Virus record (IMG/VR): IMGVR_UViG_3300045988_126112
Span: 64,001 to 128,000 of that record
Length of the DNA: 64,000 bases
Strand: one strand, 5' to 3'
Source: a virus
Shown here piece by piece: positions 16,155 through 64,000 of this stretch; within the stretch, counting starts at the first letter, position 1; each line of letters starts with the position of its first letter. Position numbers and translations under genes: made by a program. The notes beneath the pieces were generated by a model, which saw only the letters and a program-made list of their open reading frames with translations, was not told where the DNA came from and did no database searches.

Positions 16155-16155
16155 T

Positions 16156-16311: not shown

Positions 16312-16336
16312 TCAGGAGCAATCCTGATTATTTTTT
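16311..16336 (+). terminator. Rho-independent terminator
   Basis: atcagga/tcctgat stem followed by tatttttt. Confidence 0.65.
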
Positions 16337-16362
16337 GAACATTTTAGAAAGGAGGGATATAA

Positions 16363-17577: not shown

Positions 17578-17602
17578 AATTATACAAAAGGAGGAATTTA
17601 AT

Positions 17603-17890: not shown

Positions 17891-17903
17891 GGAGGATTAA
17901 GAA

Positions 17904-30636: not shown

Positions 30637-33252
30637 ATGAACTTTGAAGGATTAGGAACAATTTATGAATCATTAGGACAATATGATCAAATACCAATGA
30701 CTGAAGAGAATATTAAGAAATACAAATCTAAAGCTAAAGGATTATCTCATATAAGAACTGGCAAAGATTATACAGGTACTATAATTTTAGATAATAAAGA
30801 CGTAGTAGGCTTTTATAATCTTAGAAAATCTGATAGATATATCCAAGCTTTAGAGGTTAGTGAGAATTATCAATCTAAAGGTATTGGAAGTCAATTACTT
30901 CAAGAATGTATTAATAAAGGAGCAACTAAATTATCTGTAAACAAGAAAAATGAAAAAGCTATTAATCTTTATAAGAAAAGAAACTTTAAAGTTGTTAAAG
31001 AAGATAATACCATGTATTATATGGAATTAAATAAAAAGGTACATGGGCTAAAAGAAAGTTATAGTAATATACCAGAACTTAATGAAGATTATAAGAAATA
31101 TATTACTCAAAATTTTGAAGATACTTTAAAAGCTGAAGAAGAAAGTATTGAAAAATTTGGTCTTTCTATTAGAGAAAGATATGAAAATATATTCGATGAT
31201 ATTTGCTCAAGACAATATCTAAATGAAAATGTAAATGAATCTACAGCTTTACAAAATGAAGATTTTGTAAGATCCGTTGGATATCAAATTCCTACAGACA
31301 ATATAACTTGCTTACCTTATTTTACACCACAAGAACTTGAAGATATTGTATTTAAAGAAGGAGTTGAACAACCTGAATGGTTTAAAGAATATAAACTTCT
31401 TCAAAATGGTATAGTTAGTGAAAGATTTATAGAATTGAATAAGCAAAGACTTAATGATTTATATGAAAATATAAATGAAGATTCTAATACTATATTAAAA
31501 CTTGGGTGGACTCCTGATATTCCATTAACTAGTGATAATTTAGAAAAGGTATCTGCAACTACAGCGTTTAGAATTAGATGCAATCTATGTACTAATGAAT
31601 TTTATGATGCTACTTCTATACACGATGATGAGTATATTAAAGAATCTATAGAAACAGGTAAATATATTTATGTAGATATCGACAAATTTATTACAGGAAA
31701 AAATAATGTTTGTTTAATTACTGGATTATCTGGAAGTGGTAAAACTACTCTAGCTAAAGAAATGGCATCTAAATATAATGCTACTATTGTTTCTTTAGAT
31801 AGTTTTACTGGAAAATATGGAGAAATTAATCATGATCCTGTATTAGATTCTTATATGAAAAAGAATAAAAAACTTGCTAAAGATTTAGAAGAAGGAAATT
31901 TAGATAATAATGCTATAGCTTATGAAATGGATAAATATCTACAATATGCTATTTCATATTGTAATAAAGATACTAATAATAAATATATTATAGAAGGAGT
32001 TCAAATATATTGGTTAATGAATGGTAAAGACCTTAAAGGTTGCTCATTAGTTTGCGTAGACGCTTCTGCTGTAAAAAGTGCATTACAAAGAGTTAAAAGA
32101 TCTAATAAATTAAATAAAGAAGCTAATACAAATTTAATAGGTAAATTATCAGATGCTTTACAATCTGCAAAAATTAATAAAGATGATGTTAGAGGTTATA
32201 AAGACTTCAAAAAGGAAGTAAGAGAAGGATTAACTGAAGCTACTAAAGATAATAAAAATCCTGTATATATAATACTTGTATATACAGCATCACCATTTGG
32301 AAAAATGATTAAAGAATATACACATGGAATATATACACATGCAGCTATGTCTTTAGATAATACTTTAAATAAACTTTATAGTTTTAATCTAAATAATCAA
32401 TTTAATAAACTTGGTGGATTTAGTATTGAATCTATAGAGGGTTATAAAAAAGATAATAAAGATGCTATAATGTGTGTATATACTACATTCATAGATGATG
32501 ATAAGAAAAGAAAACTAGACAAACAAATAAATTACTTTATAGGTAATATAGATAAAACTAAATATAGTATTATAAATGTGCTTGGCTTAATTGCAAATAA
32601 GCCTATAGAATTAGCTAATGATATGATATGTAGTCAATTTGTTGATAGAATGCTTAAGTCTGTAGATATAGACGTTACTGGTATGGCTAGTTCTTTAGTA
32701 ACTCCAAATGATATTTATAAATCAACTTCTAATAAAATATATAAAGTTTATGAAGGAAGAGTTGATGAATATAATCATAAGAAAATTCAAGCTAAAGTTA
32801 ATAAACTTAGACGTTCTAGTATAACTGAAGCTAAATCTGCTCCAGTACAATTTGATAAAGATGGTAATCTTCTTATTATAAAAAATATAAAAGATGTACA
32901 AGAAGAATATAATAAATGCCATAAGTTACTTCTATCTTATGATTCTTCAGGAAATATAGAAGGGATGAAGCATGAGTTATATAAATTATGGTATCTTAAT
33001 CTTATACTTGAAAGAAAGATATATAAGAATAAGAAACCTGAAAAAGAATATCATGATATGAGAGCAAGAATACTTAATGATTTTAATAAGTATCTTAAAA
33101 TAGTAAATAAAGCTGAACCAGACTTTGATTTCACATCTGGTTATGAAGAATCGCCATATAGTGATGCAGCTATTAAAATCCATTCTCATACTTTGAAATA
33201 TGGAGTTAAGTATTCTAAATCATTATTTAAGCTATTTGAAACTGTTTTATAA
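30637..33252 (+). CDS. Multidomain early protein (871 aa): N-terminal GNAT acetyltransferase, central P-loop NTPase/kinase-like module, C-terminal permuted papain-like (YiiX/C92-like) module
   Basis: GNAT motif A: IQALEVSENYQSKGIGSQLLQ...AINLYKKRNFKVV. Walker A: ITGLSGSGKTTLAKEM. C-terminal His-before-Cys pattern: YTHGIYTHAAMSL ... NDMICSQFVDRML. Class I box at 30600-30610. The GNAT and P-loop calls are solid; the peptidase call is tentative. Confidence 0.6.
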   Translation: MNFEGLGTIYESLGQYDQIPMTEENIKKYKSKAKGLSHIRTGKDYTGTIILDNKDVVGFYNLRKSDRYIQALEVSENYQSKGIGSQLLQECINKGATKLSVNKKNEKAINLYKKRNFKVVKEDNTMYYMELNKKVHGLKESYSNIPELNEDYKKYITQNFEDTLKAEEESIEKFGLSIRERYENIFDDICSRQYLNENVNESTALQNEDFVRSVGYQIPTDNITCLPYFTPQELEDIVFKEGVEQPEWFKEYKLLQNGIVSERFIELNKQRLNDLYENINEDSNTILKLGWTPDIPLTSDNLEKVSATTAFRIRCNLCTNEFYDATSIHDDEYIKESIETGKYIYVDIDKFITGKNNVCLITGLSGSGKTTLAKEMASKYNATIVSLDSFTGKYGEINHDPVLDSYMKKNKKLAKDLEEGNLDNNAIAYEMDKYLQYAISYCNKDTNNKYIIEGVQIYWLMNGKDLKGCSLVCVDASAVKSALQRVKRSNKLNKEANTNLIGKLSDALQSAKINKDDVRGYKDFKKEVREGLTEATKDNKNPVYIILVYTASPFGKMIKEYTHGIYTHAAMSLDNTLNKLYSFNLNNQFNKLGGFSIESIEGYKKDNKDAIMCVYTTFIDDDKKRKLDKQINYFIGNIDKTKYSIINVLGLIANKPIELANDMICSQFVDRMLKSVDIDVTGMASSLVTPNDIYKSTSNKIYKVYEGRVDEYNHKKIQAKVNKLRRSSITEAKSAPVQFDKDGNLLIIKNIKDVQEEYNKCHKLLLSYDSSGNIEGMKHELYKLWYLNLILERKIYKNKKPEKEYHDMRARILNDFNKYLKIVNKAEPDFDFTSGYEESPYSDAAIKIHSHTLKYGVKYSKSLFKLFETVL

Positions 33253-42053: not shown

Positions 42054-43172
42054 TTATATTAATCTAAGGTTATCTAATGATGGTATACCATCTTCATTAT
42101 ATGAACTATAATCATCATCATATTCATAAGATTCATTTTTAGCTTTTCTACCTATAAGTTTAACACAAGTAGCTTTATATTGTTTACGTTGATCATTGAA
42201 TGCTGTCATTTTAGCAGCTTCAACTTGTTCTAATATAGTTAAACAGTTAGTAACAACTGTATTACATTTAGATATAACTTGAAGTCTCTTAGAATTAGTA
42301 TTAACTTCATCTTTATCTGTAGGTTTAGGTATTTTAGATAACTCTTTAGAGCATCTTTCTAATTCTTTAATTTGATTTTCACAAGTTTTCTTAGTTGTCT
42401 TAAAGTCATCTTTTATTGTTTTTGAACCTGTTGAAGCATTCATTAAGAATTGAACTATTTCTCCTTTATTTATGTCACTATCATCTAAAGTTATAGCTGA
42501 ATCTTCATCATTTCTTAATTTAGCTCTTAATTCTTTAGCAAATTCGCCAGCATCTAAACCACCAGAAGAACCTATAGCAGCTGCTCTTAATTCTTCTATT
42601 ATATCAGTATCTTCAGATTTTACATCTTTATCTTCTATAGTACTTAATCTATCAGATCTGTAATTAAATGCAATAGCTACAGTTGTTCCACTTAATCCTT
42701 CCATTTTAATAGATACTTTTTTCATAGCATCCAATATAGATTGTGCTCCAGCTACTTTTTCTGGTGTAAATTTATAACCTTTTATTTCAAGGTCTTTTGT
42801 ACTACCAGCCATTATTTGTTTTCTGTATTTATTTACAAAAGCTTTATCATCTTTACCAAAAGATTGCATTTTAGCAAAGAATTTAGTAAATAGAGATTTT
42901 ATTTTTTCCCATATTTTTTTTATTGCAGCTTTTAATTTTTCTATTATACCGCCTGCTCTACCAGCTTCATAAACTATTTCTTGACCAGTAGATTCTAATA
43001 CTGCTAATTCTGAAACACCTATAGTTTTCATTATAGCATTTAAATTTGAGTCTATTTCATAAGTATGTCTAAGAGCTGCTTCGTCAAAGCTATCTTCAAA
43101 TATATCTTCAACTTCTACATCTTCTAAATAAGCAGTTCCTTCATAAGCTTCTTTAACTGAGTATATTCCCAT
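42054..43172 (-). CDS. Paralogue family member P3 (372 aa)
   Basis: N-terminus MGIYSVKE. Core: GGIIEKLKAAIKKIWEKIKSLFTKFF. AAAGGAGG upstream. Confidence 0.75.
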   Translation of the reverse strand: MGIYSVKEAYEGTAYLEDVEVEDIFEDSFDEAALRHTYEIDSNLNAIMKTIGVSELAVLESTGQEIVYEAGRAGGIIEKLKAAIKKIWEKIKSLFTKFFAKMQSFGKDDKAFVNKYRKQIMAGSTKDLEIKGYKFTPEKVAGAQSILDAMKKVSIKMEGLSGTTVAIAFNYRSDRLSTIEDKDVKSEDTDIIEELRAAAIGSSGGLDAGEFAKELRAKLRNDEDSAITLDDSDINKGEIVQFLMNASTGSKTIKDDFKTTKKTCENQIKELERCSKELSKIPKPTDKDEVNTNSKRLQVISKCNTVVTNCLTILEQVEAAKMTAFNDQRKQYKATCVKLIGRKAKNESYEYDDDYSSYNEDGIPSLDNLRLI

Positions 43173-43198
43173 TATAATTTCCTCCTTTTTTATATAAA

Positions 43199-44344
43199 TT
43201 AAAATTCATAGTTTTCAAACATTTCATTTATTTCATATTCAGCTGCTTCTTCTACAGCATCTAAATATGTAGCTTCATTTTTAGCTTTATCATTATATGA
43301 TACAGCTTTAGCAAATACTCTTCTTGATTGAGATATTTTGAATTTATGTTCATTTAAGAAACAAGCAACTACTCTATTATGAACATTTTCAAGTGTACTT
43401 ATACAAGTTTGTACTACTCCACTAACATTTAATGAATCAGTTACTTGTTGAGCATCAACAATTTTCTTTTTACTACCTCCACCATCAGTATCTGTTGGTA
43501 TAGTTACCATATCACCTTTTTTAGCTTTACCTAATTCTTTAGAGTATGATTCTACTCTTTTTAATACAGCACTAAAATGTTTATCAGTTTTCTTTTGTGC
43601 ATCTGTTATTTCTTTCTTTATTTTATCACCTTGTAAATCTAATATAATAGAAGTTAATCTAGATGAATCTAATCCTTCTTCTGATTCTTCTGAATCAAAA
43701 CACAATTCATGTATTTCTTTAGCAAGATCTTTCATTTCAACATTTTTTAATTTACTACTTATGCATCCTTCTATAAAATAAGATTCCAAATCTCCATCAT
43801 CTATATGTTTCTTCCATGAATCAGCAGTAGATTCGTTATCTAACATACCTAATATAGTAAGTGCTTCTGTTTGTAAAGCAGTACCAGGATCTAAAGCATC
43901 TTTTAATTCTTTAAATCCAGCTAATTCTTGGCTATATTTGTATTTTAATTTACTAAGATTTTTAGTTCTTACTTGACGTTGATATTTTTCAACAAATTTT
44001 TTATTATCTCTTATGATAACTGTATCTAACTTCTTTAAAAAAGTTGAGAAAACACCTTTAATTTTTTCCCATATTTTCTTTATCATTGATTTAAATGCTT
44101 CAAAGAATCCACCTAATGAAGCTTCTGTAAATGCTAATAATTCTTCTTCTGATGCTCCTTCATTAACCATTACAGCTTGATTAAAATCTCTAGCTATACC
44201 AGCTTCAAATATAGCATGATTATTTCTTTCCATGTCTATAAGAGCATTATAACAACCTAATGTACCAACATAAGATTCATCTGCTACTATTTCTTCTCCT
44301 GAATAATAATTTAATCCAGTTCTATTTGATGAGTATATTCCCAT
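43199..44344 (-). CDS. Paralogue family member P4 (381 aa)
   Basis: N-terminus MGIYSSNR. Core: GGFFEAFKSMIKKIWEKIKGVFSTFLKK. Contains a 233-nt tract identical to P5. Confidence 0.8.
   Translation of the reverse strand: MGIYSSNRTGLNYYSGEEIVADESYVGTLGCYNALIDMERNNHAIFEAGIARDFNQAVMVNEGASEEELLAFTEASLGGFFEAFKSMIKKIWEKIKGVFSTFLKKLDTVIIRDNKKFVEKYQRQVRTKNLSKLKYKYSQELAGFKELKDALDPGTALQTEALTILGMLDNESTADSWKKHIDDGDLESYFIEGCISSKLKNVEMKDLAKEIHELCFDSEESEEGLDSSRLTSIILDLQGDKIKKEITDAQKKTDKHFSAVLKRVESYSKELGKAKKGDMVTIPTDTDGGGSKKKIVDAQQVTDSLNVSGVVQTCISTLENVHNRVVACFLNEHKFKISQSRRVFAKAVSYNDKAKNEATYLDAVEEAAEYEINEMFENYEF
43934..44166 (-). repeat. 233-nt tract identical to 45131..45363 (inside paralogue P4)
   Basis: Base-by-base comparison by eye shows no mismatch. 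The flanks diverge immediately (t/a on one side, cc/tc on the other). Confidence 0.85.
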
Positions 44345-44386
44345 TATAGTTTCCTCCTTTATTAAGCATAATATTTTATTTTATAG

Positions 44387-45526
44387 TTATAAACAATATT
44401 GTTCAAACATTTCATTTATTTCATATTCAGCTGCTTCTTCTACAGCATCTAAATATACTGATTCATTTTTAGCTTTATCATTATAAGATACAGCTTTAGC
44501 AAATACTTTTCTAGCTTGAGAAATTCTAAATTTATTTTCATTTAAGAAACAAGCAACGGCTCTATTATGAACATTTTCAAGATTATTTATTACAGTTTGA
44601 ATTACTCCAGCATTTTGTAAATAATTAGTAATAGTTTTATTACTAGTTATAGGAATTTTTTTAGATGCATCATCTGGTCTATCTATTTCTATTTTTTTAT
44701 TATTATCATCTATTTTACTTTTAGATAGGTCTTTACTATATCTATCTAAATCTTTTAATATACTTCTAAAGTGTTTATCTACAGATTTTTGTGCTGTTTC
44801 AATATCTTTTTTAGTTTTATCACCTTGAAGTATTATTATTATTTCTGTAAGTCTTGATGAATCTAATCCTTCTTCTGATTCTTCTGAATCGAAACAAATA
44901 TCATGGACTTCTTTTGATAAATCTTTCATTTCAACATTTTTAAGTTTACCACTTATACATTTTTCTATGAAGTATTCATTTAATTCATCTTTTTCAAGCA
45001 TATCTTTATAAAAAGTTAATGAACCAAACCAGTTAGCAAAGCCTTTCATAACATTATCTGCTTCATCTTTAAATTTATCTTTTGTTGTTAAAGAATCTTT
45101 TATATCGTTAAATCCTTCTAATTGCTTACAATATTTGTATTTTAATTTACTAAGATTTTTAGTTCTTACTTGACGTTGATATTTTTCAACAAATTTTTTA
45201 TTATCTCTTATGATAACTGTATCTAACTTCTTTAAAAAAGTTGAGAAAACACCTTTAATTTTTTCCCATATTTTCTTTATCATTGATTTAAATGCTTCAA
45301 AGAATCCACCTAATGAAGCTTCTGTAAATGCTAATAATTCTTCTTCTGATGCTCCTTCATTAATCATTGTAGCTTCTTGAAAATCTCTAGCTATATTATA
45401 CTCAAATATAGCACGATTATTTCTTTCCATATCTATAAGAGCATTATAACAACCTAATGTACCAACATAAGATTCATTAGCTTGCACATCATATTCTGAT
45501 TCCATATGTCTTGAATATATTCCCAA
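44387..45526 (-). CDS. Paralogue family member P5 (379 aa), TTG start
   Basis: The track ORF starts at the GTG at 45535, which abuts AGGAGG. The TTG at 45524-45526 is 8-9 nt from the SD and gives the N-terminus MGIYSRH, matching the paralogues. Confidence 0.75.
   Translation of the reverse strand: MGIYSRHMESEYDVQANESYVGTLGCYNALIDMERNNRAIFEYNIARDFQEATMINEGASEEELLAFTEASLGGFFEAFKSMIKKIWEKIKGVFSTFLKKLDTVIIRDNKKFVEKYQRQVRTKNLSKLKYKYCKQLEGFNDIKDSLTTKDKFKDEADNVMKGFANWFGSLTFYKDMLEKDELNEYFIEKCISGKLKNVEMKDLSKEVHDICFDSEESEEGLDSSRLTEIIIILQGDKTKKDIETAQKSVDKHFRSILKDLDRYSKDLSKSKIDDNNKKIEIDRPDDASKKIPITSNKTITNYLQNAGVIQTVINNLENVHNRAVACFLNENKFRISQARKVFAKAVSYNDKAKNESVYLDAVEEAAEYEINEMFEQYCL
45131..45363 (-). repeat. 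233-nt tract identical to 43934..44166 (inside paralogue P5)
   Basis: See the partner feature. Encodes ...EGASEEELLAFTEASLGGFFEAFKSMIKKIWEKIKGVFSTFLKKLDTVIIRDNKKFVEKYQRQVRTKNLSKLKYKY. Confidence 0.85.
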
Positions 45527-45538
45527 TTTTAGCACCTC

Positions 45539-54338: not shown

Positions 54339-56480
54339 TTATTGAGAAGGTAATAATTTATGATATAAATTTTCACCAAGAGAATCTACTTTAACTTGTA
54401 ATCCAACTAATCCATTTCCGAATAATGTTTTCTTACCAGCAGACCATAATCTATTTAAATCTAGTTCTATAGCTCTCATTATATCTGGTTTATTTACATT
54501 TATACCACATAAATTGGCTATATAATCTAATTGATCTACGTTTTTACTTAATCCAACATAATCATTTTTAGGTGACATAGATAATGATTGATATAAATCT
54601 TTTATACTAATACTTATATCAACATCTAATGGTAATGCTGATAAAGTCCATTTAGATTTTTCACCTCTTGTTATACTCAAACTTGATATAATTCCCATAT
54701 TTACATTAAATTGCCCTTTATAAAAAGCTCTAACTAAAAATGGTGATTGAATACCATTATATCCTAATTGTCTTGGTAATGTAAAAGCTAATAGATGTAT
54801 TAATGGTACACCTATATTTAAATACCAACTATATGGATCTCCATCTGGAGTTCTAAGTTTAATATTTATATCATAACTTCTACTGAAATCAGAATCATTC
54901 CATATTTCTGGGAATACTAATTGCCCACCAACTTTTATAGTATCTAATGTATTTCTTAATCTACTAGTTAATAGAGCTGGTAAAACTTGTATATATTTAT
55001 CTGTAAAAGATGTTATTTGGTCAAAAGCATCTGAAAAGTTATTAGTTAATAATTGATTATATGCTGTACCAGTTGCTCCACCCATTAAGAATCCTATTTC
55101 TCTTGATAAATTATTAACTTGATTTATTGAATTTGCAAATTCAGATTCTGCAGTACTATTACTAAAACTTTCAGACATTTGTGATTCAGCATCTACATAA
55201 AAACCTACAGCTTGAACTAATCCAGATATATTCTTTAAATATCTAGATTGATAATTTTCCCATGACATTTGACCAAGAGAAGATTTATCAAACAATGCTC
55301 TTGTTGTATAGATATATTTATTAGCTATACCTAAATATATAGCCATTTCTTGTAACATTGCATCTACATAGTTAAAATACTCAGAATAAGCATGCTGGAA
55401 AGTATAGAATTTTCCATCTCCTTCTTCACCACTTACATCAGCTAATAATGTTTCTGCAGCACTTATACCACCAGCAACTAATGCTGATAATAAATCATCT
55501 TTAGAATCGTTTGAATAGTTAGGCATATAAGTAGGTATTCCTGGTGATAATACTAATAATGGCATTTTACTTAATATTCTTTCAGCATATAGTCTACCAT
55601 AAGAGCTATCACTTGATAATTTAGGATCCACTAAACTAGAAAATTGATATGGCATACCATGTATACCTCTAACTATATCACTTGGTATACTATCTTGGTC
55701 ATAATCATTTAATTTACCTTGAAATGCAGCATAATCTATATCATCTCTAGTTAAACTATCATCTTCAGGAATAAATTTATCTGTGCTTACTGAAGAGTCT
55801 TCACCATCTCCACCTTCACCACTATCACCTGAACCGCCACTTCCTCCATTACCACTACTATTTTTATGCTTTACAATACTATTATTATTTATTTCACTTA
55901 CTTTTGCTTCACCAGATTTTACATCAGTAGCTTTTATATACGTATTACTAGTTGTCTTATAACAAACATATCCATGTTTATCTTTTTTAGGAGTTGGGTT
56001 TTGCATTGTTGGTTTCTTTGAACTATATTCAACATAACACCATCCATCAGTTATACCAACTTTACTCATACTTACTATAGTATTAACTGGTATAGTTCCT
56101 AAAGAAGTTTTACTTTCTCTAGTTTTCCATACTGTAACTTTTTTAACTACAGTTCCAGTAGCTTTTATACTACTAGCATTAAAAGTTCTTAATTGGAATC
56201 CTGTTGTTGGATCCCCTTTAACTCCACCTTGTGCTTTATATGCTTCAGTAACACCTTTACCACTAACATGAATGCTACCATTAATCATATATAAGCACCA
56301 TCCAGTACCTAATTTTGAATGTTTTACTTTACAATACCAGTTTGTTTTATTATATCTTAATACTGTAACTTTATCTCCTGCACTCATTACTCCTATTTTT
56401 TTAGAACTCTGAGATGTACCTTCTCTTAAAGTTGTAGCTATTTCTATTACAGCACTTCCACCTTTAACATAATTAGCCAT
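54339..56480 (-). CDS. Tail/baseplate-associated protein (713 aa): N-terminal SH3-like repeats, G/S-rich linker, large C-terminal domain
   Basis: Repeats: GDKVTVLRYNKTNWYCKVKH..GTGWCLY and VGITDGWCYVEY. Linker: SSGNGGSGGSGDSGEGGDGEDS. Lies immediately downstream of the tape-measure-like gene. Confidence 0.55.
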   Translation of the reverse strand: MANYVKGGSAVIEIATTLREGTSQSSKKIGVMSAGDKVTVLRYNKTNWYCKVKHSKLGTGWCLYMINGSIHVSGKGVTEAYKAQGGVKGDPTTGFQLRTFNASSIKATGTVVKKVTVWKTRESKTSLGTIPVNTIVSMSKVGITDGWCYVEYSSKKPTMQNPTPKKDKHGYVCYKTTSNTYIKATDVKSGEAKVSEINNNSIVKHKNSSGNGGSGGSGDSGEGGDGEDSSVSTDKFIPEDDSLTRDDIDYAAFQGKLNDYDQDSIPSDIVRGIHGMPYQFSSLVDPKLSSDSSYGRLYAERILSKMPLLVLSPGIPTYMPNYSNDSKDDLLSALVAGGISAAETLLADVSGEEGDGKFYTFQHAYSEYFNYVDAMLQEMAIYLGIANKYIYTTRALFDKSSLGQMSWENYQSRYLKNISGLVQAVGFYVDAESQMSESFSNSTAESEFANSINQVNNLSREIGFLMGGATGTAYNQLLTNNFSDAFDQITSFTDKYIQVLPALLTSRLRNTLDTIKVGGQLVFPEIWNDSDFSRSYDINIKLRTPDGDPYSWYLNIGVPLIHLLAFTLPRQLGYNGIQSPFLVRAFYKGQFNVNMGIISSLSITRGEKSKWTLSALPLDVDISISIKDLYQSLSMSPKNDYVGLSKNVDQLDYIANLCGINVNKPDIMRAIELDLNRLWSAGKKTLFGNGLVGLQVKVDSLGENLYHKLLPSQ

Positions 56481-56494
56481 AATATCACTCTCCT

Positions 56495-56538
56495 TTTTTT
56501 ATAATAAAGTTCGGAAAGGATTATTCTCCTTTCCGAAC
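56495..56538 (-). terminator. Hairpin between the giant gene and the 713-aa gene (minus strand)
   Basis: gttcggaaagga/tcctttccgaac 12-bp stem. The minus strand continues tttattataaaaaaa. Confidence 0.6.
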
Positions 56539-56544
56539 CTAGTT

Positions 56545-59500
56545 TTATTCAGTAGCTAATATTTCAAGTATATCTAAAATAGCTTGAGTATTACTTGTAT
56601 CACTATCAGTACTATTCATTCCTTTTTGTAATAATGAGAATATTTTTTGTGTCTTAGTTTTGTCAGTATCTGAAGATGTTTTAGTTGTTGGTTTTGTAGT
56701 TTTTGTCTTAGTTGCTGGTTTACCTGTTATTGATTTTTGTATTTCTGTTAATAAATCAACTACTTCTTTAATATTTTCAGTATTATTAGCGACTTTATTT
56801 AATACTGATACTATTATAGTAATAAGTTGTTTTAATACTTTTTCGTCAATTCCTTTATTTAAATTACTTATATTAGCATCAACTTTTTGGTCACTATCAG
56901 GGAATGATAAAGTAACTTTATCTAATGAATTCTTAGTACCACCATGAGCTGTTTTATCATAATATTTACTTGGATTTAAACTCTTACCATTATCTGTCAC
57001 TTCATAATGTAAATGTGAACCAGTACTTCTACCAGTTGAACCTACATTACCAATTATATCATTTTGTCTAACTTTTGTTCCTAATCCATAAGAAGATTGA
57101 TCTTTCATATGTGCAAATCTATGATCGATACCTTTCTTATCTCTTACAACAAGAGTATTACCAAATCCATATTTTTTATCTTTAAGATTTTCTACAACTT
57201 TTCCTGATACTGGTGATTTTATTGGTGTATTTTCTTTTGCAGCATAGTCAACACCAGTATGGAATTCATTATCTCTTATACCAAAATCAGATGATTTGAC
57301 TCCATCTAATGTATCTTGGAAATATCTATCAATATCTTTAGTAAGATCTGTATCTTCTCCTTTACCTTCAGATGTAATCTTGCTCTTAATGTCTGCTAAC
57401 CATTTTGTATAGAATTCTTTTGATATAGGATGTATATGGTCACTTCCTCTATAAGATGGTTTATCTATACTTCTTGAGTCAACTATGTTAACTGAGTTCT
57501 TAGATGCTATTCCTGGTAATGCTTTTTGTACTACTGGAACCCATTTTTTAGTTTTACCACCAGAAGGAGTAAATGTTTGTGTTAACACTATTTTACTCTT
57601 TGGAGATTCTTTCTTGATTTTGTTTATAAGTTTAGTATATTGCTTACTATACCAATCAGCATTGAAACTTCCACCGCCACTAATCCAGTCCGCATCATTT
57701 GTTCCATAATGTGTTATGATTACTGGAGGTTTTTTAGCAGCTGCTTTGGCAACATTTCCATCGCTAATACCTTTAGCAACTGTATCACCTATTGTAGCTA
57801 CTACTCTACTAGATGGTAATACTTTCATATCTTTAAAACCTTTAGCTATTGAGTCACCTAATATAACTGATTTATCAAAATCACTAGATGAAACTTTTGT
57901 TTTTACTGAACTGTAATCTGTACCACTACTTAAATCACTACCATCACTTGAACTTGAACTATCTGTTGTAGCATCACTTGCAGCTGGTGTATCAATATCA
58001 AATCCAAATAATTTCTTACTAAAGTTTATAGCAGCTGTAGCCATATCACTAAAGAATTCACCTGCTGTACTTCCAGTAGAAGTATCATCTCCACTTGAAG
58101 CTCCACCATGTGAAGCTGAGTAATTTCCAACACTAGCTTCAGGTAATGTATAGCTTCCTGTAGCTTTTTCAAATTTAGTTAACTTATTAGGATTTTTTAT
58201 AGTTGGTGATACTTTCTTATCTCCATCTATAAATCTCTTACCAGTTAACCAATGGTTTTGAGACCAACTACTTCCAAGATTAGCAACTCTTATACCACTA
58301 AATCCACTTGAATCACTTGTAGTAGATTCTATATATTTATTATCTCCTAAATATAATGATGAATGTGAAACATTATCTTTATATTTAGTAGTACCATTTC
58401 TACTAGATCTAGTATTTTTAAATAATATAATATCACCAGGTTTAAGATCACCTTTCTTAACTTTAGTACCTCTACTACTTAAATATTGTTCTTCTGTATA
58501 GCCACCTATTTCAGTACCTGCAGCTCTGTCAAATACATGGTGAGTAAAGCTTGAACAGTCAGAAGCATTTCTATTTTTATTTATATAATCTCTATTTGGT
58601 TGAGAATAATAGAATCCTTTGTTTAAGAAAGATAAAGCATATTCTATAATCTTAGAACTTAATTTAACTTTATCATCACCTTTACCATATCTTTCATCGT
58701 CACCTTTACCAGTACTAACAAAGTTTTCAAAGTTAACTAACTTACCATCTTTAAGATATTTCTTATAGATAGTTTGTGCAGTTTTAGCTCTAGTTCCTCC
58801 ACCAACTCCTCTTTCGAAGAATTTATTAAACTTAGAACCAGCTTGATATGCATCAGTTTCATTTAAGAATCCATTAAGTCCTTTCTTTGGATATTCTTGG
58901 TTAAGCCATACCTTATGAGTACTATCTTGTAATTGATCCCATAAGAATGCCATTTGAGCATCTGTATCTGACCATTCCAAATTCATAGATTTTGCTATTT
59001 TTTTCAATTTATCAAAGTTATTATATTTGCGTATCCATTGGAATAATCCAAAATAAGTACCAGTTTTATCTTTACCATCAGCTTTTGGATTAAAACTACT
59101 TTCACACCAAGCATTACCTAAAACACCTGCAGATGCAGCATCTGATGCACCTTTAGCTTTAGTAAATTTTAGTATTTTTTCTGCAACATTTTTAGCTGAT
59201 ATATTAGATTCATCACTAGATGAACTACCATATTCTGAAGAACTTGAATCATCTGTTGTAGCATCACTTGCAGCTGGTTCATCAATATTAAATCCAAATA
59301 ATTTCTTAGTAAAGTTTATAGCAGCTGTAGCCATATCTCCAAAGAAATCACCTGCTGTAGTTGTAGCAGTAGTATCTTCTGTAGCAGTTCCATCACTTGT
59401 ACCATCTGAAGTTCCATCAGAACCATCATTTACTTCAGTAATTTCTCCTCCTACTTTATCCATATATTCTTTAAATGATAATGAACTTCCTTTAAGTTTA

Positions 59501-62500
59501 TAATGTTTACCTTTAGTTTCAGTATAATAATTTAAAGGATCGACTCCATTACGACTCTTACTTGTACCACCTTTTAGAACTTCTAAATGAACATGAGGAC
59601 CACTAACATGACCAGTAGCACCAGAAATACCTAAAAGTTGACCTTGTTTAACTGAATCACCTTTCTTAACTTTTTTACTCTTCATATGAGCAACTCTATA
59701 GAATGTATTACCACTATTAGTTTTTATAGTCAATGAATTACCATAAGAACTATGTTCATTTTCACTATATACAGTTCCTGATTTAGGAGCATATAATGGT
59801 TGGAAATGAACGTTATAGTCTAATGCACCATGGTCACCTCTAGCTGTAGCATATTGAGATCTTTTTTCACTAAAGTAAGAAGTTATACTTCCTTTACTTG
59901 GATCACAGAAATAACCCCAATCTACACCTTCACCCATACCATAATAAGGATTAGTTAAATCTACTATATCTGGACCTTTACCTGCACTTCCATCTTTACC
60001 CATAAATGTAATATTACCTTTACAGTTTTGGAAGTTTTTATAATCTGATGCACTAACTAGAATATCTATTCTATATACACCATTTACAATTTTTATAGCT
60101 CCACCTCTATCTGTAACTGTATATATTTTACCATCTAATGATGTACCAGTATTTGATATCTTTATTTTAGTACCAACAGGAACATCTGCAGGAGCAGCAC
60201 AAGTTTGTTCAGCAGGGTTTAGAGGATTACCTTTACAATCATAGAATCCACCTTCCATAGAATCGTTATGAGGATAGTATGCTGTAAAAGATGCTTTAAC
60301 AGATTTACCAACTTTATAGTTAGTACCTGTATATCTAGTACATTCACTTCCAGGTGAACCAGAAGAACTACTAGATGTAGTATCTGTACTTGCTTCACTA
60401 ATATCAAATCCAAATAATTTCTTACCAAAGTTTATAGCAGCTGTAGCCATATCTCCGAAGAAATCATCACCATTGCTACCAGTAGCTTCAGCACCAGTAT
60501 CTTCACTAACACCTTCACTTGAAGATCCACTACTTTCTTGACCGTCTGTACTTCCTACTTTCTTAACTTTACTTTCATCTACTTTATAAGTTTTATCACC
60601 TATTTTGAAAGCAAATCTAAATCCAGTACTAAGTTGTGATTCAGATCTAGCACCTGAGAATCTAGAACCTCTAGGGTCATTTATTACATAACCATCTTTA
60701 GTTTTACCAAACAATGCTAAATAATGTCCATTAGGTCCATATGGAGTTAATAAACAGTTTTTAGACCAGTTTGAACTCTTAGAGCATCTACCATCTATAA
60801 TTAAAGGATAACCTTTAGCAGCTAATTCTTTAGTTTTTGATAATGAACTAATATAAGTTACACTTGTATTATATTTTTTACCATAGTAATTAAATAATCT
60901 TGAAGAATCTGTTACACCAGCAGTAGGACTCCATCCATGACTCTTTCCTTGTGCACACATATCTTTAGGATTTAAAGTTTTACCAGTTACTTGCCCAAAT
61001 GCCATTGCAGCTGAAGTTGGACCACAACCAGCTTTTAATATATTTCCTCCAAATGCTACTTGAGACCAATAAGGGAATCCATTTACATATGTTAATGTAG
61101 TAGGGTCTGAACCTTTACCAGCAAAATTTGGATCTTCTAAAGCTAAAGCTTTACTATCTTTGCTAGATAACATAACTTGTTCAGCATCTTTAATATCTTC
61201 TTTATAACCTGTATCACCAAACACCCATGCATGTTTAAATCCTTTCTTTAATTGACTTTCATCATAAGATTTAGAACCATTAATACTTGATGGGTCATTT
61301 ACTATATAACCATTTTTATTACGACCAAACATTGCAACTATATGTCCATCTGAATCAGTTCCATATAAATTACCACCTTCACCAGATATAACCATTGGAA
61401 CTCCACGACTAGCATATTGTTTTATTTGTTCGAAATTATCAATTGATTTAACTTTTATTCCATATTTGTTTCCTAAATATGGGAACATTGAATCTGTTGA
61501 ACCATTATCATCATAAACTCCTGCATTGTAAGTTTCATCTGCTACTTCATTAGGAGTTATCATTTTACCAGTAACTTTACTTAAAACCATTGCAGCTGAA
61601 GTTGGACCACAGCCAGTTTCACTAAGTTCTGGTTTCTTTTTATCTGTATTATAATCTTTATATTGGCTAAAATAAGGGAAGTTATTTACTCCTAAATAAG
61701 AATCGTCAGTTTGAGAAACCTCAGCTGGATCTTTACCTTTACCAACGTATTCTCCTTTACCAAATAATCCACCAAACCAGTTAAGACCACTAGCTACAGC
61801 ATTTTTAACAGTATTGTAAACATTACCAACAGCGTTACCAGCTTTCTTAACTACAGATTTAACACCACTTGCTACATTATGAACAACATTACTTACACCA
61901 CCAGTTACTTTACTAAATAATGATTGTGCACCATTTTTTATTTTATTAAGTATTCCACCTGAAGCAGATGTTGAACCAGTTAGATTTTCAGCTATACTAG
62001 TTATAGTATCTGTAGTGGCATTTGTAGACATAGATTTAAGATTAAATTCTTTAACTATTTTATCAGCTTGTTTCTTTAATGTATCAATATCTTGAGGACC
62101 TTCACCAAATACTGGCATTACATAATCTTGTATTAATTTTGCCCAATCTGTATTTGGAAGTAATTTATCTATTACGAATCTTCCATTTATAGTAGCTAAT
62201 ATTGCAGCACATGCTTTCATACCAGTAGTATAAGTATCATAAATACCTATATATTTAGCTGGATTATTAAATGCATTAACAAAATTAGATATTAAGAAAG
62301 ATATATTACTTACATTAGCATTAGATACTATTGCTCTAAGATATCTATTTAGGTTAATAGATTTATTCTTTTCACAATTCATTTTTAATTTCTTGATTAC
62401 TTGTGGAACAAAGTTTCCTAAAAGTACACTTGCTGCACTATATTGACTACTACTAGCATCACCAAGTAAATTAATTATAGTATCATTATTAAATATTTTA

Positions 62501-64000
62501 GTAAATATTTCTTCTAATACTTTACTAGCACTTTCAATCATACCAGTACCACTAACAGATTTTGTAATATGATTTAATGCTAAAGTACTTTTCTTACGGA
62601 ATGAAGAACTTAAAGCAGATGGAGCTACAGATTTTATAGTATTTCTTACATTGCCTATAACTCTTTCACTTGAAGGAACTGAATTAGAGCTATCATCATC
62701 GCCTTTACCGAAAGACCAAGAATCTCTAAATCCATTCATTAATTCTTCTTTACTATAAGCTTTAGAATATTTCTTACCTCTAGGGTCATTTACTAAATAA
62801 TTACCATTTTTATCTTTACCAAATACAGTAACTATATGACCAGCTTTAGTATAAGGACTATCTTCACCTTTTCCTAAAGTACCAGATACTGCTGTTGGTA
62901 TACCAGCACTAACCATTTTATCAAATTTTTCAAAGTTTCCACCTGAAGATACAGTTTTAACACCATATTTTTTAGCTTCAGTAGCAAACATATTACCTCT
63001 AGCACCTTCAGAATCCCAAGTCTTATTCTTATAAGCATCTTTAGCTATTGATTCTGGAGATATGTCTTTACCAGTTACTTTACTTAAAGCCATTGCTGTT
63101 GAAGTTGGACCACAACCAGCATCATTTATCATTTGTCCAAATTGTCCAGAAGCTTGTTTTTGTGAGAAATATGGATTACCATTAACTACGTCACCTTCAC
63201 CTTTACCAACTTTCATACCATTTACAGTTTTTATATCTGATACTTTTGCATTAGTATCTTTGCTAGGTTTTTTAGTGAATACATTTTTTACACCATTTTT
63301 AACAGTATCCCATGCATTACCAGCAGCTGATTTAGCATCATTCCATTTATCACTAACCCAATCTTTAGATTTCATAACCCAACCAAATTTATTTTTAAAC
63401 CAATCTAATAGGCTTTGGAATCCTTCACCTATAGCTTTAATTGGATCTTGTATAAATTTAGAGCACCAGTCTTTAATATCATTAAATTTCTTTCCTATTC
63501 CATCAAGTACAGGCTTGATATTTTTATCATACCAACCACTTAATTGTTTAGTAAGACCATCTAATATACCTTTACCCCAATCACTTATACTATTGTATAA
63601 TGAACCAATCATTTTTGGTGTATCTACTATACCATTAGCAGCAGCACTTAAGCCTTTAGCCATTAAGTTAGCTCCGCCTTTGACTCCACTAAGTAACATG
63701 TTTCCAGTCCAATTCTTAGCAGTATTGAACCCGTTTTCTAACATCTTACCACCAGCACCTATACCATTTATAGCTTGATTTCCTAACCATTTAGCTCCAT
63801 TCCATAATTGACCAGCACCATTACCCATAGCTGTTAAAGCTCCAGCCATTTTATCTCCAGCCCAATTAATTCCATTATCATTAACCCATTTAAGACCTTC
63901 AAGTGCTTTACCACCTACCCATTTATTTACATCTACCCATTTACCAATACCTTTAAGTGTAGCTTGATCAAGCCATTTAAGTCCTTTAATTGCTTTACCA
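56545..64000 (-). CDS. Giant tail tape-measure-like protein with multiple peptidoglycan-hydrolase domains (over 2484 aa; N-terminus beyond the right edge)
   Basis: The track gives 2434 aa from the ATG at 63849. My translation of 63850-64000 shows the frame stays open to the window edge (GKAIKGLKWLDQATLKGIGKWVDVNKWVGGKALEGLKWVNDNGINWAGDK-MAGAL...) with the same Trp-periodic repeats. The domains are listed as separate features. Confidence 0.85.
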   Translation of the reverse strand, partial: GKAIKGLKWLDQATLKGIGKWVDVNKWVGGKALEGLKWVNDNGINWAGDKMAGALTAMGNGAGQLWNGAKWLGNQAINGIGAGGKMLENGFNTAKNWTGNMLLSGVKGGANLMAKGLSAAANGIVDTPKMIGSLYNSISDWGKGILDGLTKQLSGWYDKNIKPVLDGIGKKFNDIKDWCSKFIQDPIKAIGEGFQSLLDWFKNKFGWVMKSKDWVSDKWNDAKSAAGNAWDTVKNGVKNVFTKKPSKDTNAKVSDIKTVNGMKVGKGEGDVVNGNPYFSQKQASGQFGQMINDAGCGPTSTAMALSKVTGKDISPESIAKDAYKNKTWDSEGARGNMFATEAKKYGVKTVSSGGNFEKFDKMVSAGIPTAVSGTLGKGEDSPYTKAGHIVTVFGKDKNGNYLVNDPRGKKYSKAYSKEELMNGFRDSWSFGKGDDDSSNSVPSSERVIGNVRNTIKSVAPSALSSSFRKKSTLALNHITKSVSGTGMIESASKVLEEIFTKIFNNDTIINLLGDASSSQYSAASVLLGNFVPQVIKKLKMNCEKNKSINLNRYLRAIVSNANVSNISFLISNFVNAFNNPAKYIGIYDTYTTGMKACAAILATINGRFVIDKLLPNTDWAKLIQDYVMPVFGEGPQDIDTLKKQADKIVKEFNLKSMSTNATTDTITSIAENLTGSTSASGGILNKIKNGAQSLFSKVTGGVSNVVHNVASGVKSVVKKAGNAVGNVYNTVKNAVASGLNWFGGLFGKGEYVGKGKDPAEVSQTDDSYLGVNNFPYFSQYKDYNTDKKKPELSETGCGPTSAAMVLSKVTGKMITPNEVADETYNAGVYDDNGSTDSMFPYLGNKYGIKVKSIDNFEQIKQYASRGVPMVISGEGGNLYGTDSDGHIVAMFGRNKNGYIVNDPSSINGSKSYDESQLKKGFKHAWVFGDTGYKEDIKDAEQVMLSSKDSKALALEDPNFAGKGSDPTTLTYVNGFPYWSQVAFGGNILKAGCGPTSAAMAFGQVTGKTLNPKDMCAQGKSHGWSPTAGVTDSSRLFNYYGKKYNTSVTYISSLSKTKELAAKGYPLIIDGRCSKSSNWSKNCLLTPYGPNGHYLALFGKTKDGYVINDPRGSRFSGARSESQLSTGFRFAFKIGDKTYKVDESKVKKVGSTDGQESSGSSSEGVSEDTGAEATGSNGDDFFGDMATAAINFGKKLFGFDISEASTDTTSSSSSGSPGSECTRYTGTNYKVGKSVKASFTAYYPHNDSMEGGFYDCKGNPLNPAEQTCAAPADVPVGTKIKISNTGTSLDGKIYTVTDRGGAIKIVNGVYRIDILVSASDYKNFQNCKGNITFMGKDGSAGKGPDIVDLTNPYYGMGEGVDWGYFCDPSKGSITSYFSEKRSQYATARGDHGALDYNVHFQPLYAPKSGTVYSENEHSSYGNSLTIKTNSGNTFYRVAHMKSKKVKKGDSVKQGQLLGISGATGHVSGPHVHLEVLKGGTSKSRNGVDPLNYYTETKGKHYKLKGSSLSFKEYMDKVGGEITEVNDGSDGTSDGTSDGTATEDTTATTTAGDFFGDMATAAINFTKKLFGFNIDEPAASDATTDDSSSSEYGSSSSDESNISAKNVAEKILKFTKAKGASDAASAGVLGNAWCESSFNPKADGKDKTGTYFGLFQWIRKYNNFDKLKKIAKSMNLEWSDTDAQMAFLWDQLQDSTHKVWLNQEYPKKGLNGFLNETDAYQAGSKFNKFFERGVGGGTRAKTAQTIYKKYLKDGKLVNFENFVSTGKGDDERYGKGDDKVKLSSKIIEYALSFLNKGFYYSQPNRDYINKNRNASDCSSFTHHVFDRAAGTEIGGYTEEQYLSSRGTKVKKGDLKPGDIILFKNTRSSRNGTTKYKDNVSHSSLYLGDNKYIESTTSDSSGFSGIRVANLGSSWSQNHWLTGKRFIDGDKKVSPTIKNPNKLTKFEKATGSYTLPEASVGNYSASHGGASSGDDTSTGSTAGEFFSDMATAAINFSKKLFGFDIDTPAASDATTDSSSSSDGSDLSSGTDYSSVKTKVSSSDFDKSVILGDSIAKGFKDMKVLPSSRVVATIGDTVAKGISDGNVAKAAAKKPPVIITHYGTNDADWISGGGSFNADWYSKQYTKLINKIKKESPKSKIVLTQTFTPSGGKTKKWVPVVQKALPGIASKNSVNIVDSRSIDKPSYRGSDHIHPISKEFYTKWLADIKSKITSEGKGEDTDLTKDIDRYFQDTLDGVKSSDFGIRDNEFHTGVDYAAKENTPIKSPVSGKVVENLKDKKYGFGNTLVVRDKKGIDHRFAHMKDQSSYGLGTKVRQNDIIGNVGSTGRSTGSHLHYEVTDNGKSLNPSKYYDKTAHGGTKNSLDKVTLSFPDSDQKVDANISNLNKGIDEKVLKQLITIIVSVLNKVANNTENIKEVVDLLTEIQKSITGKPATKTKTTKPTTKTSSDTDKTKTQKIFSLLQKGMNSTDSDTSNTQAILDILEILATE
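56965..57275 (-). other. Giant protein domain: M23 metallopeptidase copy 2
   Basis: HTGVDY ... GSTGRSTGSHLHYEV. Confidence 0.75.
57375..57880 (-). other. Giant protein domain: SGNH/GDSL hydrolase
   Basis: Block I VILGDSIAKG, block III HYGTNDA, block V GSDHIHP. Confidence 0.65.
57961..58056 (-). repeat. Giant-protein linker module copy 3 (FFSDMATAAINFSKKLFGFDIDTPAASDATTD)
   Basis: About 90 of 96 nt are identical to 59251..59346. Confidence 0.8.
58315..58660 (-). other. Giant protein domain: NlpC/P60 endopeptidase
   Basis: NASDCSSFTHHVF...LKPGDIILF...VSHSSLYLGDNKYIES (Cys...His order). Confidence 0.7.
58790..59205 (-). other. Giant protein domain: phage tail lysozyme-like
   Basis: AGVLGNAWCESSFNPKA...GTYFGLFQW, the motif typical of tail-associated lysozyme domains. 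Confidence 0.5.
59251..59346 (-). repeat. Giant-protein linker module copy 2 (FFGDMATAAINFTKKLFGFNIDEPAASDATTD)
   Basis: About 90 of 96 nt are identical to 57961..58056 by eye. Confidence 0.8.
59570..59850 (-). other. Giant protein domain: M23 metallopeptidase copy 1
   Basis: HGALDY (HxxxD) ... GATGHVSGPHVHLEV (HxH). Confidence 0.75.
60050..60300 (-). other. Giant protein domain: 3D (MltA/YuiC-like) domain
   Basis: SFTAYYPHNDSMEGGFYDCKGNPL...CAAPADVPVGTKIKI...YTVTDRGGAIK..RIDIL. Confidence 0.6.
60394..60462 (-). repeat. Giant-protein linker module copy 1 (FFGDMATAAINFGKKLFGFDISE)
   Basis: Located from the sequence ...gaagaaatc.../...ttcactaatatc. Confidence 0.8.
60595..61098 (-). other. 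Giant protein domain: papain-like Cys peptidase (C39-like) copy 3
   Basis: NGFPYWSQ...KAGCGPTSAAMAFGQVTGK...GHYLALFGKTKDGYVINDP. Cys codon at 61024-61026. Confidence 0.6.
61210..61686 (-). other. Giant protein domain: papain-like Cys peptidase (C39-like) copy 2
   Basis: NNFPYFSQ...ETGCGPTSAAMVLSKVTGK...GHIVAMFGRNKNGYIVNDP. Cys codon at 61609-61611. Confidence 0.6.
62695..63180 (-). other. Giant protein domain: papain-like Cys peptidase (C39-like) copy 1
   Basis: NGNPYFSQ...DAGCGPTSTAMALSKVTGK...GHIVTVFGKDKNGNYLVNDP. Cys codon at 63112-63114. Confidence 0.6.

Follow-up and report, generated by a model that had tools for sequence, protein, structure and literature searches.

A giant tape-measure/tail-lysin-like protein with nine apparently active, putatively wall-cutting enzyme modules in a jumbo phage of the human gut

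The locus and its open reading frame

The window analysed here is a stretch of 64,000 nucleotides (positions 64,001 to 128,000 of the IMG/VR record IMGVR_UViG_3300045988_126112), and its last part is occupied by a single giant gene. On the minus strand, a point that the initial annotation did not give, 56545–63999 reads as one uninterrupted frame of 2,484 sense codons plus a stop at 56545–56547, with no stop up to the window edge; an ORF listing that begins at the first in-frame ATG shows only 56545–63849. The same 2,484 aa occur with 0 mismatches on a 244,046-bp human-gut contig, where, as on related contigs, gene callers give a length of 5,708–5,711 aa (the neighbouring gene used for the look-up was read on 15 contigs, and the giant gene was seen on at least four). 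Contigs ERZ918339 k127_120508 and ERZ19289564 NODE_27 give the sequence. A sequencing-error artefact, which would have undone the observation, is therefore excluded, and the window holds the C-terminal 44% of the protein. A scan of IMG/VR for the N-terminus found nothing. A search for in-frame SD+ATG starts inside the gene found none, and a promoter and terminator scan showed nothing meaningful within it. Directly downstream, at 54339–56480 on the same strand, lies a gene for a virion protein with an N-terminal SH3_3 domain, homologous to phiKZ gp182 (E 1e-18), AR9 g205 and the virion protein of the Staphylococcus jumbo phage PB50, and this neighbour defines the syntenic slot. The window also encodes a major head protein, GroEL and a multisubunit RNAP beta subunit, in agreement with a jumbo-phage context.

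Enzymatic modules and tape-measure-like segments

The initial annotation described a tape-measure-like giant protein carrying about nine cell-wall-degrading modules in one chain, and this observation is confirmed. When each module was scanned on its own, eight of them passed the curated gathering thresholds of Pfam, and catalytic residues are present in all nine (residue numbers are those of the 2,484-aa segment, and all features are on the minus strand). The segment begins with a Trp/Gly/Lys-rich, tape-measure-like region (63205–63999, residues 1–265), which matches the tape-measure (TMP) PHROGs 1272, 58, 1535 and 4197 with E values from 2e-7 to 7e-4. The claim that this region is a Trp-periodic repeat typical of tape measures is only partly supported: Trp makes up 6% of its residues and several W-to-W spacings are multiples of 11, but the lag-11 autocorrelation is weak (0.12). 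A second non-enzymatic, tape-measure-like segment (61690–62709, residues 431–770) matches TMP PHROGs 305, 58, 1272 and 167, the hits of both segments spanning E 1.5e-8 to 7e-4, and Gly-rich hydrophobic stretches of the kind typical of tape measures lie in the 827 aa upstream of the 2,484-aa segment.

Three C39-like, papain-fold peptidase modules (Peptidase_C39_2) score 68.4, 66.6 and 40.4 bits against a cut-off of 24. They correspond to C39a (62782–63174, residues 276–406, E 1e-18), which is inserted inside TMP-like sequence, C39b (61291–61683, residues 773–903, E 5e-18) and C39c (60670–61080, residues 974–1109, E 5e-10). GCGPTS and GH motifs are found in each copy, and in C39a the Cys of GCGP, the His of GH and the Asp of NDP are present; across 29 domains, Cys and His are invariant and Asp is present in at least 90%. 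The AF2 model of C39a has a pLDDT of 95.7, and its Foldseek neighbours are ComA, PCAT1, LahT, staphopains and papain-like CdiA toxins, at TM of about 0.6, together with the pseudomurein endoisopeptidase PeiR.

The module annotated initially as a 3D domain (59980–60309, residues 1231–1340) has no Pfam hit, PF06725 included, even at E up to 1. It matches, however, residues 333–464 of PDB 8v3w_H, the diffocin hub-hydrolase CD1368, at E 7e-10, and the matched residues have been described as an MltA-like lytic transglycosylase (PMC10996793). The residues taken to be the Tyr–Asp–Asp triad (FTAY, TDRGG and RIDIL) are present, although which residues form the triad is our reading of the alignment.

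Two M23 metallo-endopeptidase modules score 68.9 and 90.7 bits against a cut-off of 28.7 and match M23 peptidase structures in the PDB: M23a (59560–59832, residues 1390–1479, E 5e-19), with HGALD and HVH, and M23b (56971–57264, residues 2246–2343, E 7e-26), with HTGVD and HLH, that is, with HxxxD and HxH in both copies. Between them lie a phage tail lysozyme module (Phage_lysozyme2, PF18013; 58756–59187, residues 1605–1748, E 3e-25, 89.7 bits against a cut-off of 28.2), which carries GNAWCES...FQW and whose GNAWCES Glu aligns with the Glu of the SES motif in the phi29 gp13 lysozyme domain, and an NlpC/P60 endopeptidase module (NLPC_P60; 58306–58575, residues 1809–1899, E 2e-12, 47.6 bits against a cut-off of 23). 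The latter has a DCSSF motif, and its Cys and His align with Acd24020 (7cfl), but the third triad position is Glu rather than His. An SGNH/GDSL esterase module (Lipase_GDSL_2; 57427–57861, residues 2047–2191, E 5e-10, 40.6 bits against a cut-off of 32.9) also precedes M23b, and its GDS, GTND and DHIH blocks align with 4h08. The chain ends in a C-terminal tail (56548–56919, residues 2361–2484) with an LxxIxxNT motif shared with relatives and with AR9 g204; its helical nature and a role as baseplate-proximal anchor are inferred.

Linker elements and junction motifs

Two features had been missed in the initial annotation. The first is a G-K-G-(D/E) motif that marks most module junctions. GKG occurs 11 times against 3.1 expected from shuffles, eight of the 11 lying between modules and one at a module edge, whereas only 2 GKG are found in 16,674 aa of the other 51 ORFs of the window. 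The second is a conserved element of about 30 aa, predicted to be helical at low confidence, which occurs three times: copy 1 (60385–60468, residues 1178–1205, DDFFGDMATAAINFGKKLFGFDI) is flanked by Ser/Thr/Asp-rich tracts, copy 2 is found at 59269–59352 (residues 1550–1577), and copy 3 at 57979–58059 (residues 1981–2007). This linker was found in only 25 protein clusters out of 1.84 billion, nearly all of them giant phage proteins, with 2–3 near-identical copies per protein. In 36 relatives, 49 of the 50 linkers with a recognised module within 150 aa upstream follow a peptidase (32 of the 50 follow a C39 module), and all 53 with a recognised module downstream precede a non-peptidase module. 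An HMM built from the three copies of the window alone did not find the linkers of the relatives, for which a k-mer self-comparison and a family alignment were needed, and a BLAST self-comparison returned no internal repeats. Synonymous differences between the linker copies are few (2–5 codons), but with 26% GC and strong codon bias this does not separate selection from gene conversion.

Conservation and synteny

A full-length ortholog of 5,717 aa (P0036), which is 55.5% identical over the array, has the same nine modules in the same order with catalytic residues kept. In this ortholog the third position of the NlpC/P60 triad is His, and the motif G-[KRT]-G-[DE] sits at the orthologous junctions; G[KFY]G is found at junctions in many relatives. 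The first homolog search did not return the protein itself, and P0036 came only from the profile search with the linker. Relatives carry 2–8 modules, nearly every one of them having two or more C39 modules whatever else it carries, and some include an uncharacterised module (X1) for which Pfam found nothing. Among 50,697 phage genomes, no record covers more than 12% of the chain, and a megablast of the gene against them gave no match.

The gene order around the giant gene mirrors that of the Bacillus phage AR9 (g204, annotated as tape measure, g205, RusA and g212–g216), that of the tape measure, tail lysin and virion protein of PB50, and that of phiKZ gp181–gp182. The N-termini of three full-length relatives, P0001, P0002 and P0036, are homologous to that of AR9 g204 (E 1e-20, 2e-31 and 9e-18, respectively); for the protein studied here, whose N-terminal 2,397 aa lie outside the window and the retrieved loci, an AR9 g204-like start is inferred from P0036.

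Comparison with related phage proteins

AR9 g204 (1,925 aa) and its PBS1 equivalent occupy the same slot, but BLASTP found none of the nine module types in AR9 g204, and the protein described here is three times longer. In phiKZ, gp181 (2,237 aa) is a giant virion protein and structural peptidoglycan hydrolase with muralytic activity near its C-terminal part, placed by a review in the baseplate as a cell-puncturing device, and it is encoded directly upstream of gp182; however, no direct sequence similarity to it was detected, and gp181 is described with one glycosidase activity and targets a thin Gram-negative wall. In the Staphylococcus jumbo phages MarsHill, Machias, PB50 and DC4, the functions are split between two proteins of about 1,900–2,000 aa each, a tape measure with M23 and a tail lysin with PF18013 and PF00877, with three modules in total. 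The module types match those reported for these phages, and their lysozyme–NlpC/P60 pair aligns as a unit with residues 1600–1892.

The 3D/MltA-like lobe is 46–72% identical to that of the diffocin hub-hydrolase CD1368 and of C. difficile and Terrisporobacter phage tail proteins annotated as C40 peptidases. The logic of pairing a glycan cutter with a peptide cutter as scissors is the same (PMC10996793), but there the enzymes hang on a gp27-like hub domain with one pair per chain, whereas here the pair is 3D plus M23, not 3D plus NlpC/P60, and is one of three such cassettes. Another example is phi29 gp13, whose N-terminal lysozyme domain is the PDB relative of the Phage_lysozyme2 module and which combines lysozyme and M23; this is a tail-knob protein of 365 aa (the solved chain is 334 aa), not a tape measure, and has two modules only. 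Finally, muralytic activity is built into the tape measures of T5 (Pb2), mycobacteriophage TM4 and phiIPLA35, each with one motif or domain per protein.

Interpretation

Taken together, these data probably identify the segment as the C-terminal part of the tail tape-measure/tail-lysin protein of an AR9/PBS1-like (phiKZ-related) jumbo myophage of the human gut. The host is probably a low-GC Gram-positive bacterium, Peptostreptococcaceae being a guess, although a scan of 185,579 species genomes with the neighbouring protein, like the scan of the viral collection, found nothing. The initial interpretation, a tape-measure-like protein with about nine lytic modules, made from the C-terminal 44% only, is supported, and its description of the number as exceptional is fair, since virion lysins are described as having one or two catalytic domains (PMC10638138). 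Its alternative, that the chain is processed into several enzymes, is neither shown nor excluded.

In this view, an N-terminal part of about 3,200 aa is non-enzymatic, AR9 g204-like at its start, then charged and coiled, then Gly-rich and hydrophobic, and then Trp-rich. The C-terminal part of about 2,200 aa is an ordered array, GKG–C39a–GKG–[TMP-like segment]–GKG–C39b–GKG–C39c–[L]–3D–GKG–M23a–[L]–lysozyme–GKG–NlpC/P60–[L]–SGNH–GKG–M23b–C-terminal tail, where L is the linker element. So there are three cassettes of the form linker, glycan-directed enzyme and peptide-directed enzyme, preceded by three papain-fold peptidases.

What the analysis establishes is the modules, their order, their catalytic residues, their conservation in an ortholog, the synteny and the junction grammar, while the position of the protein, its mode of action and the activities and substrates of its modules are inferred. 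By analogy with other tape measures, the protein would lie in the tail lumen and baseplate with its C-terminus at the tip, would be expelled first when the sheath contracts, and would digest a channel through a thick wall. The lytic transglycosylase and the lysozyme would cut glycan strands; the SGNH esterase would remove O-acetyl groups, which block C6 of MurNAc and so hinder transglycosylases; and the M23, NlpC/P60 and C39-like peptidases would cut stems, cross-bridges or wall-bound and S-layer proteins. The tail location rests on synteny and on annotations of AR9, phiKZ and the Staphylococcus phages, and nine folded modules per chain, with three or more chains per tail, may not fit in a tail tube; they may have to sit in the baseplate or be stored unfolded.

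Tape measures fused to lysin domains have been described before; what differs here is the extent, this being the richest array of wall-degrading modules in one virion protein that could be found. It shows how a contractile jumbo phage may solve the thick-wall problem of Gram-positive hosts, by carrying a full enzymatic toolkit on its tape measure, and the regular grammar, together with the junction motifs, gives testable hypotheses about polyprotein processing and cassette shuffling. The nine modules and module X1 are also a ready source of enzybiotic domains, possibly aimed at gut Clostridia if the host guess holds.

Alternative explanations

A possible, although tentative, alternative is that the three C39-like modules are not peptidoglycan hydrolases but proteases aimed at proteins, such as the host S-layer or wall-anchored proteins, or the phage's own chain, which would leave six, not nine, peptidoglycan-directed modules. 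Their structural neighbours are mostly protein and peptide proteases, a survey of papain-like enzymes describes PF13529 as peptidases of unknown specificity, likely host relatives (Clostridioides, Romboutsia) carry protein S-layers, and C39 modules recur in nearly every relative. On the other hand, PhaLP lists PF13529 as a peptidase domain of phage lytic proteins, with 260 occurrences, and PeiR is also among the neighbours. Calling all three modules cell-wall-degrading is an inference.

Somewhat more doubtful is a self-processing polyprotein, its chain of about 620 kDa cut at the G-K-G-(D/E) junctions and/or at the linkers by its own C39-like (double-glycine-type) or M23 (glycyl-glycine-type) peptidases, which would release several free or tethered enzymes in the virion or during ejection. 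In favour of this reading are the enrichment and conserved placement of the junction motif, the closeness of the C39a model to the double-glycine peptidases ComA and PCAT1, and the many linkers that follow a C39 module. In addition, the family linker consensus has, in our reading, hydrophobic residues at −4, −7, −12 and −15 relative to an N-G pair, which is the spacing that ComA recognises in its substrate helix (PMC10885120). Lactococcal Tal proteins self-cleave at Gly-rich sites next to an M23 domain, and in the absence of internal starts separate enzymes could arise only by proteolysis. However, the −2 position is Asn, or deleted in the window protein, rather than Gly, and in the window protein −7 is Gly; the hydrophobic spacing is what any amphipathic helix would show; Gly-Lys-Gly may simply be a flexible hinge inherited through module duplication; and an AF2 model of C39c plus linker 1 gave an isolated helix with pLDDT below 40 and, at that low confidence, no docking into the peptidase groove. 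A stronger and still less likely form of this hypothesis is a programmed polyprotein with a fixed module grammar, in which the linker, placed in every scorable case but one between a peptidase and a glycan-directed module, would act as a built-in double-glycine-type leader recognised by the chain's own C39-like peptidases and the G-K-G-(D/E) junctions would be second cleavage sites. One gene would then deliver up to ten separate wall-degrading enzymes from the tail tip, and the near-identical linker copies would also serve as recombination joints that let cassettes be shuffled between phages.

An internal head or ejection protein similar to T7 gp16, packaged in the capsid and ejected ahead of the DNA, is improbable. 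phiKZ-like phages eject many head proteins, the PDB hits include an internal protein with an M23 domain (9k2v_E), and a folded array this large fits a capsid more easily than a tail tube, but the slot is that of AR9 g204 and phiKZ gp181, the non-enzymatic segments match TMP profiles, and the upstream part has Gly-rich hydrophobic segments. Lastly, an assembly chimera or a decaying fusion with no selection on the array, for which no evidence was found, is effectively refuted by the same gene length on independent contigs from different samples and by the 55%-identical ortholog that keeps all nine modules, their order and their catalytic residues.

The Giant Gene and its Enzymatic Modules

The gene lies on the minus strand, and positions 56545–63999 of the window translate into 2,484 sense codons followed by a stop, with no other stop up to the window edge, although ORF calling lists it only from the first in-frame ATG. 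An exact sequence look-up of the downstream neighbor located it on 15 metagenome contigs. On four of these, which are contigs of up to about 245 kb from human-gut samples, the upstream gene is called at 5,708–5,711 aa. The C-terminal 2,484 aa of the copy on ERZ918339 k127_120508 are identical to the window. The ORF is therefore real and reproducibly assembled, and the window holds its C-terminal 44%. Pfam searches of the whole chain, and of each segment separately, gave eight modules above the curated thresholds, namely three Peptidase_C39_2, two Peptidase_M23, Phage_lysozyme2, NLPC_P60, and Lipase_GDSL_2. A further segment (residues 1231–1340), which had been called a 3D domain in the initial annotation, has no Pfam hit. 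However, it matches the diffocin hub-hydrolase CD1368 (PDB 8v3w_H) with an E-value of 7e-10, and it is also 46–72% identical to tail “C40 peptidase/cell wall hydrolase” proteins of Clostridioides and Terrisporobacter phages. The diffocin paper assigns exactly those residues (338–458) to an MltA-like lytic transglycosylase with a Tyr-Asp-Asp triad, and the corresponding FTAY, TD.GG, and RIDIL stretches, as read from the alignment, are present here.

The catalytic residues have also been examined. In an alignment of 29 C39-like domains from this protein and its relatives, Cys and His are invariant and the Asp of NDP is at least 90% conserved. A confident AlphaFold model of the first C39-like module, C39a (pLDDT 95.7), resembles the double-glycine peptidases ComA, PCAT1, and LahT and the staphopains, as well as papain-like CdiA toxins and the pseudomurein endoisopeptidase PeiR, all at a TM of about 0.6. 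Both M23 modules have HxxxD and HxH and hit M23 peptidase structures such as LytM and lysostaphin. The lysozyme Glu aligns with that of phi29 gp13, and the Cys and His of the NlpC/P60 module align with Acd24020; the third triad position is Glu in this protein and His in the ortholog P0036. Finally, the SGNH blocks GDS, GTND, and DxxH are present.

Genomic Context and Probable Tape-Measure Identity

The window belongs to an AR9/PBS1-like, phiKZ-related jumbo phage. It carries a major head protein and, at 10917–12629 (plus strand) and 18730–20436 (minus strand), a GroEL-like chaperonin and a multisubunit RNA polymerase beta subunit, which are hallmarks of AR9-like and Staphylococcus jumbo phages. 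The neighbors of the giant gene are “virion structural protein” PHROGs. GC is about 26%; in the giant gene (56001–64000 compared with the rest) it is 30–33%, against 24–28% in most of the window, which may come from the Gly/Ser/Ala-rich composition or from acquired modules.

Several lines of evidence support a tape-measure/tail-lysin identity. The gene order giant ORF, 713-aa virion protein, RusA, and further virion genes mirrors that of AR9 g204 (annotated as tail tape measure), g205, g208, and g212–g216. The AR9 g205 gene, the homolog of the 713-aa neighbor, is annotated as joined from three pieces (15791–18126 of the AR9 locus), whereas the window’s copy (54339–56480, minus strand) is one uninterrupted ORF. 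In the Staphylococcus jumbo phage PB50 the same slot holds a tape measure (1,973 aa), then a tail lysin (1,904 aa), and then the virion protein. The 713-aa neighbor is also a homolog of phiKZ gp182 (E-value of 1e-18), and gp182 follows gp181, the 2,237-aa structural peptidoglycan hydrolase. In the 64-nt gap between the stop of the giant gene and the start of the gp182-like gene lies a perfect 12-bp stem-loop (GTTCGGAAAGGA...TCCTTTCCGAAC; 56509–56538). Moreover, the two non-enzymatic stretches of the giant protein inside the window (residues 1–265 and 431–770) hit tape-measure PHROG profiles, and C39a is therefore inserted within tape-measure-like sequence. Three adjacent ORFs of similar size (372, 381, and 382 aa) lie at 42054–45535 (minus strand), the middle one of which (43199–44344) weakly hits phrog_17020, the same family hit by the non-enzymatic segment of the giant protein at residues 656–736. 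The Trp periodicity claimed in the initial annotation is weak but present, and the extreme C-terminus carries an LxxIxxNT motif shared with relatives and with AR9 g204.

Relatives of the Giant Protein

A word-indexed search found 26 giant proteins (2,551–4,271 aa), several of them on contigs of 190–262 kb; one is annotated in NCBI as a Romboutsia ilealis “C39 family peptidase.” Their N-termini are homologous to the AR9 g204 N-terminus. A profile search with the linker element described below found 25 clusters among 1.84 billion representatives, most of them giant proteins, although several entries are short and possibly truncated. Among them is P0036 (5,717 aa), which is 55.5% identical to the window protein over the array and 42.7% identical upstream, and whose N-terminus is g204-like. 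P0036 has the same nine modules in the same order with the catalytic residues retained, while the relative P0048 has eight, and all others have two to six; a Pfam survey of relatives adds families such as glucosaminidase, SLT, and CHAP. No record in 50,697 deposited phage genomes covers more than 12% of the chain in one place, and reviews describe virion lysins as having one or two catalytic domains.

Junction Motif and Linker Element

Two features of the array have emerged from this analysis. The first is a junction motif. The tripeptide GKG, usually followed by Asp or Glu, occurs 11 times against 3.1 expected from shuffles, with eight copies lying between modules and one at a module edge, whereas the other 51 ORFs of the window contain only 2 GKG in 16,674 aa. 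One of these two is found at residue 74 of the gp182-like virion protein, directly following its N-terminal SH3_3 (cell-wall-binding type) domain (residues 17–62), again at a domain junction. Orthologous junctions in P0036 carry G-[KRT]-G-[DE], and many relatives have G[KFY]G at junctions.

The second feature is a linker element. The three junctions without GKG carry a 64-aa linker formed by an acidic Ser/Thr-rich tract, then an almost invariant core, (D/E)FF(G/S)DMATAAINFxKKLFGF(D/N)I, and then a Ser-rich tract. Relatives have their own version, GVFAKMGNxxxNLMASIFNGKEVDLF, in exactly two copies, which are identical at 27–31 of 31 positions within a protein but diverged between proteins. Across 36 proteins, 50 linkers have a recognized module within 150 aa upstream, and in 49 of these it is a peptidase (C39 in 32, NlpC/P60 in 13, and M23 in 4), the one exception being the uncharacterized module X1. 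All 53 linkers with a recognized module within 150 aa downstream precede a non-peptidase module (glucosaminidase in 18, lysozyme in 15, X1 in 10, 3D in 6, and SGNH in 4). X1 is a module of about 180 aa (FPKYNLN...GEQPG...RYNHPGNP) present in the relatives P0001 (residues about 3165–3345), P0003, P0010, P0027, and others, where it follows a linker ten times, in the position otherwise held by glycan-directed enzymes. It has no Pfam match and is absent from the window protein. The array therefore reads as three cassettes of linker, glycan-directed enzyme, and peptidase, i.e., 3D-M23, lysozyme-NlpC/P60, and SGNH-M23, each of which resembles a known stand-alone bifunctional tail lysin, such as diffocin CD1368, the Staphylococcus tail lysins, or phi29 gp13. 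As far as literature searches show, this regular module grammar has not been remarked upon previously.

Proposed Mechanism and Possible Processing

The initial annotation had described a tape-measure-like giant protein with about nine enzymatic cell-wall-degrading modules, and this observation has been confirmed, although a cell-wall-degrading role of the three C39-like modules is an inference. Its interpretation is likewise supported: the protein is a jumbo-phage tape-measure/tail-lysin fusion, a kind already known, of which it is an extreme form. The analysis itself establishes the modules, their intact catalytic residues, their conservation in an ortholog, the tape-measure slot, and the grammar. 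The action of the array, on the other hand, is inferred from what is known of tape measures and virion lysins. In this view, the C-terminal array would sit at the tail tip and be expelled first on contraction; the lytic transglycosylase and the lysozyme would cut glycan strands; the SGNH esterase would clear the O-acetyl groups that block C6 of MurNAc, an activity established for Ape-type esterases; and M23, NlpC/P60, and possibly the C39-like peptidases would cut stems and bridges.

Whether the chain might also be processed is a testable hypothesis with evidence on both sides. Cleavage would be in accordance with the junction motifs, with the resemblance of the C39 fold to double-glycine peptidases, and with the presence in the family linker of hydrophobic residues at -4, -7, -12, and -15 before an N-G pair, which is the spacing that ComA recognizes. 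The known self-cleavage of lactococcal Tal proteins also speaks for processing. However, an AF2 model shows no docking of the linker, the -2 residue is not Gly, and the spacing is generic for amphipathic helices. There are no internal translation starts in the gene. Finally, an unusual fusion for a phage was found elsewhere in the window (30637–33252, plus strand), where an 871-aa protein combines acetyltransferase (residues 13–134), ATPase-like (about 300–411), and enoyl-CoA hydratase/ClpP-like (532–708) PHROG hits.
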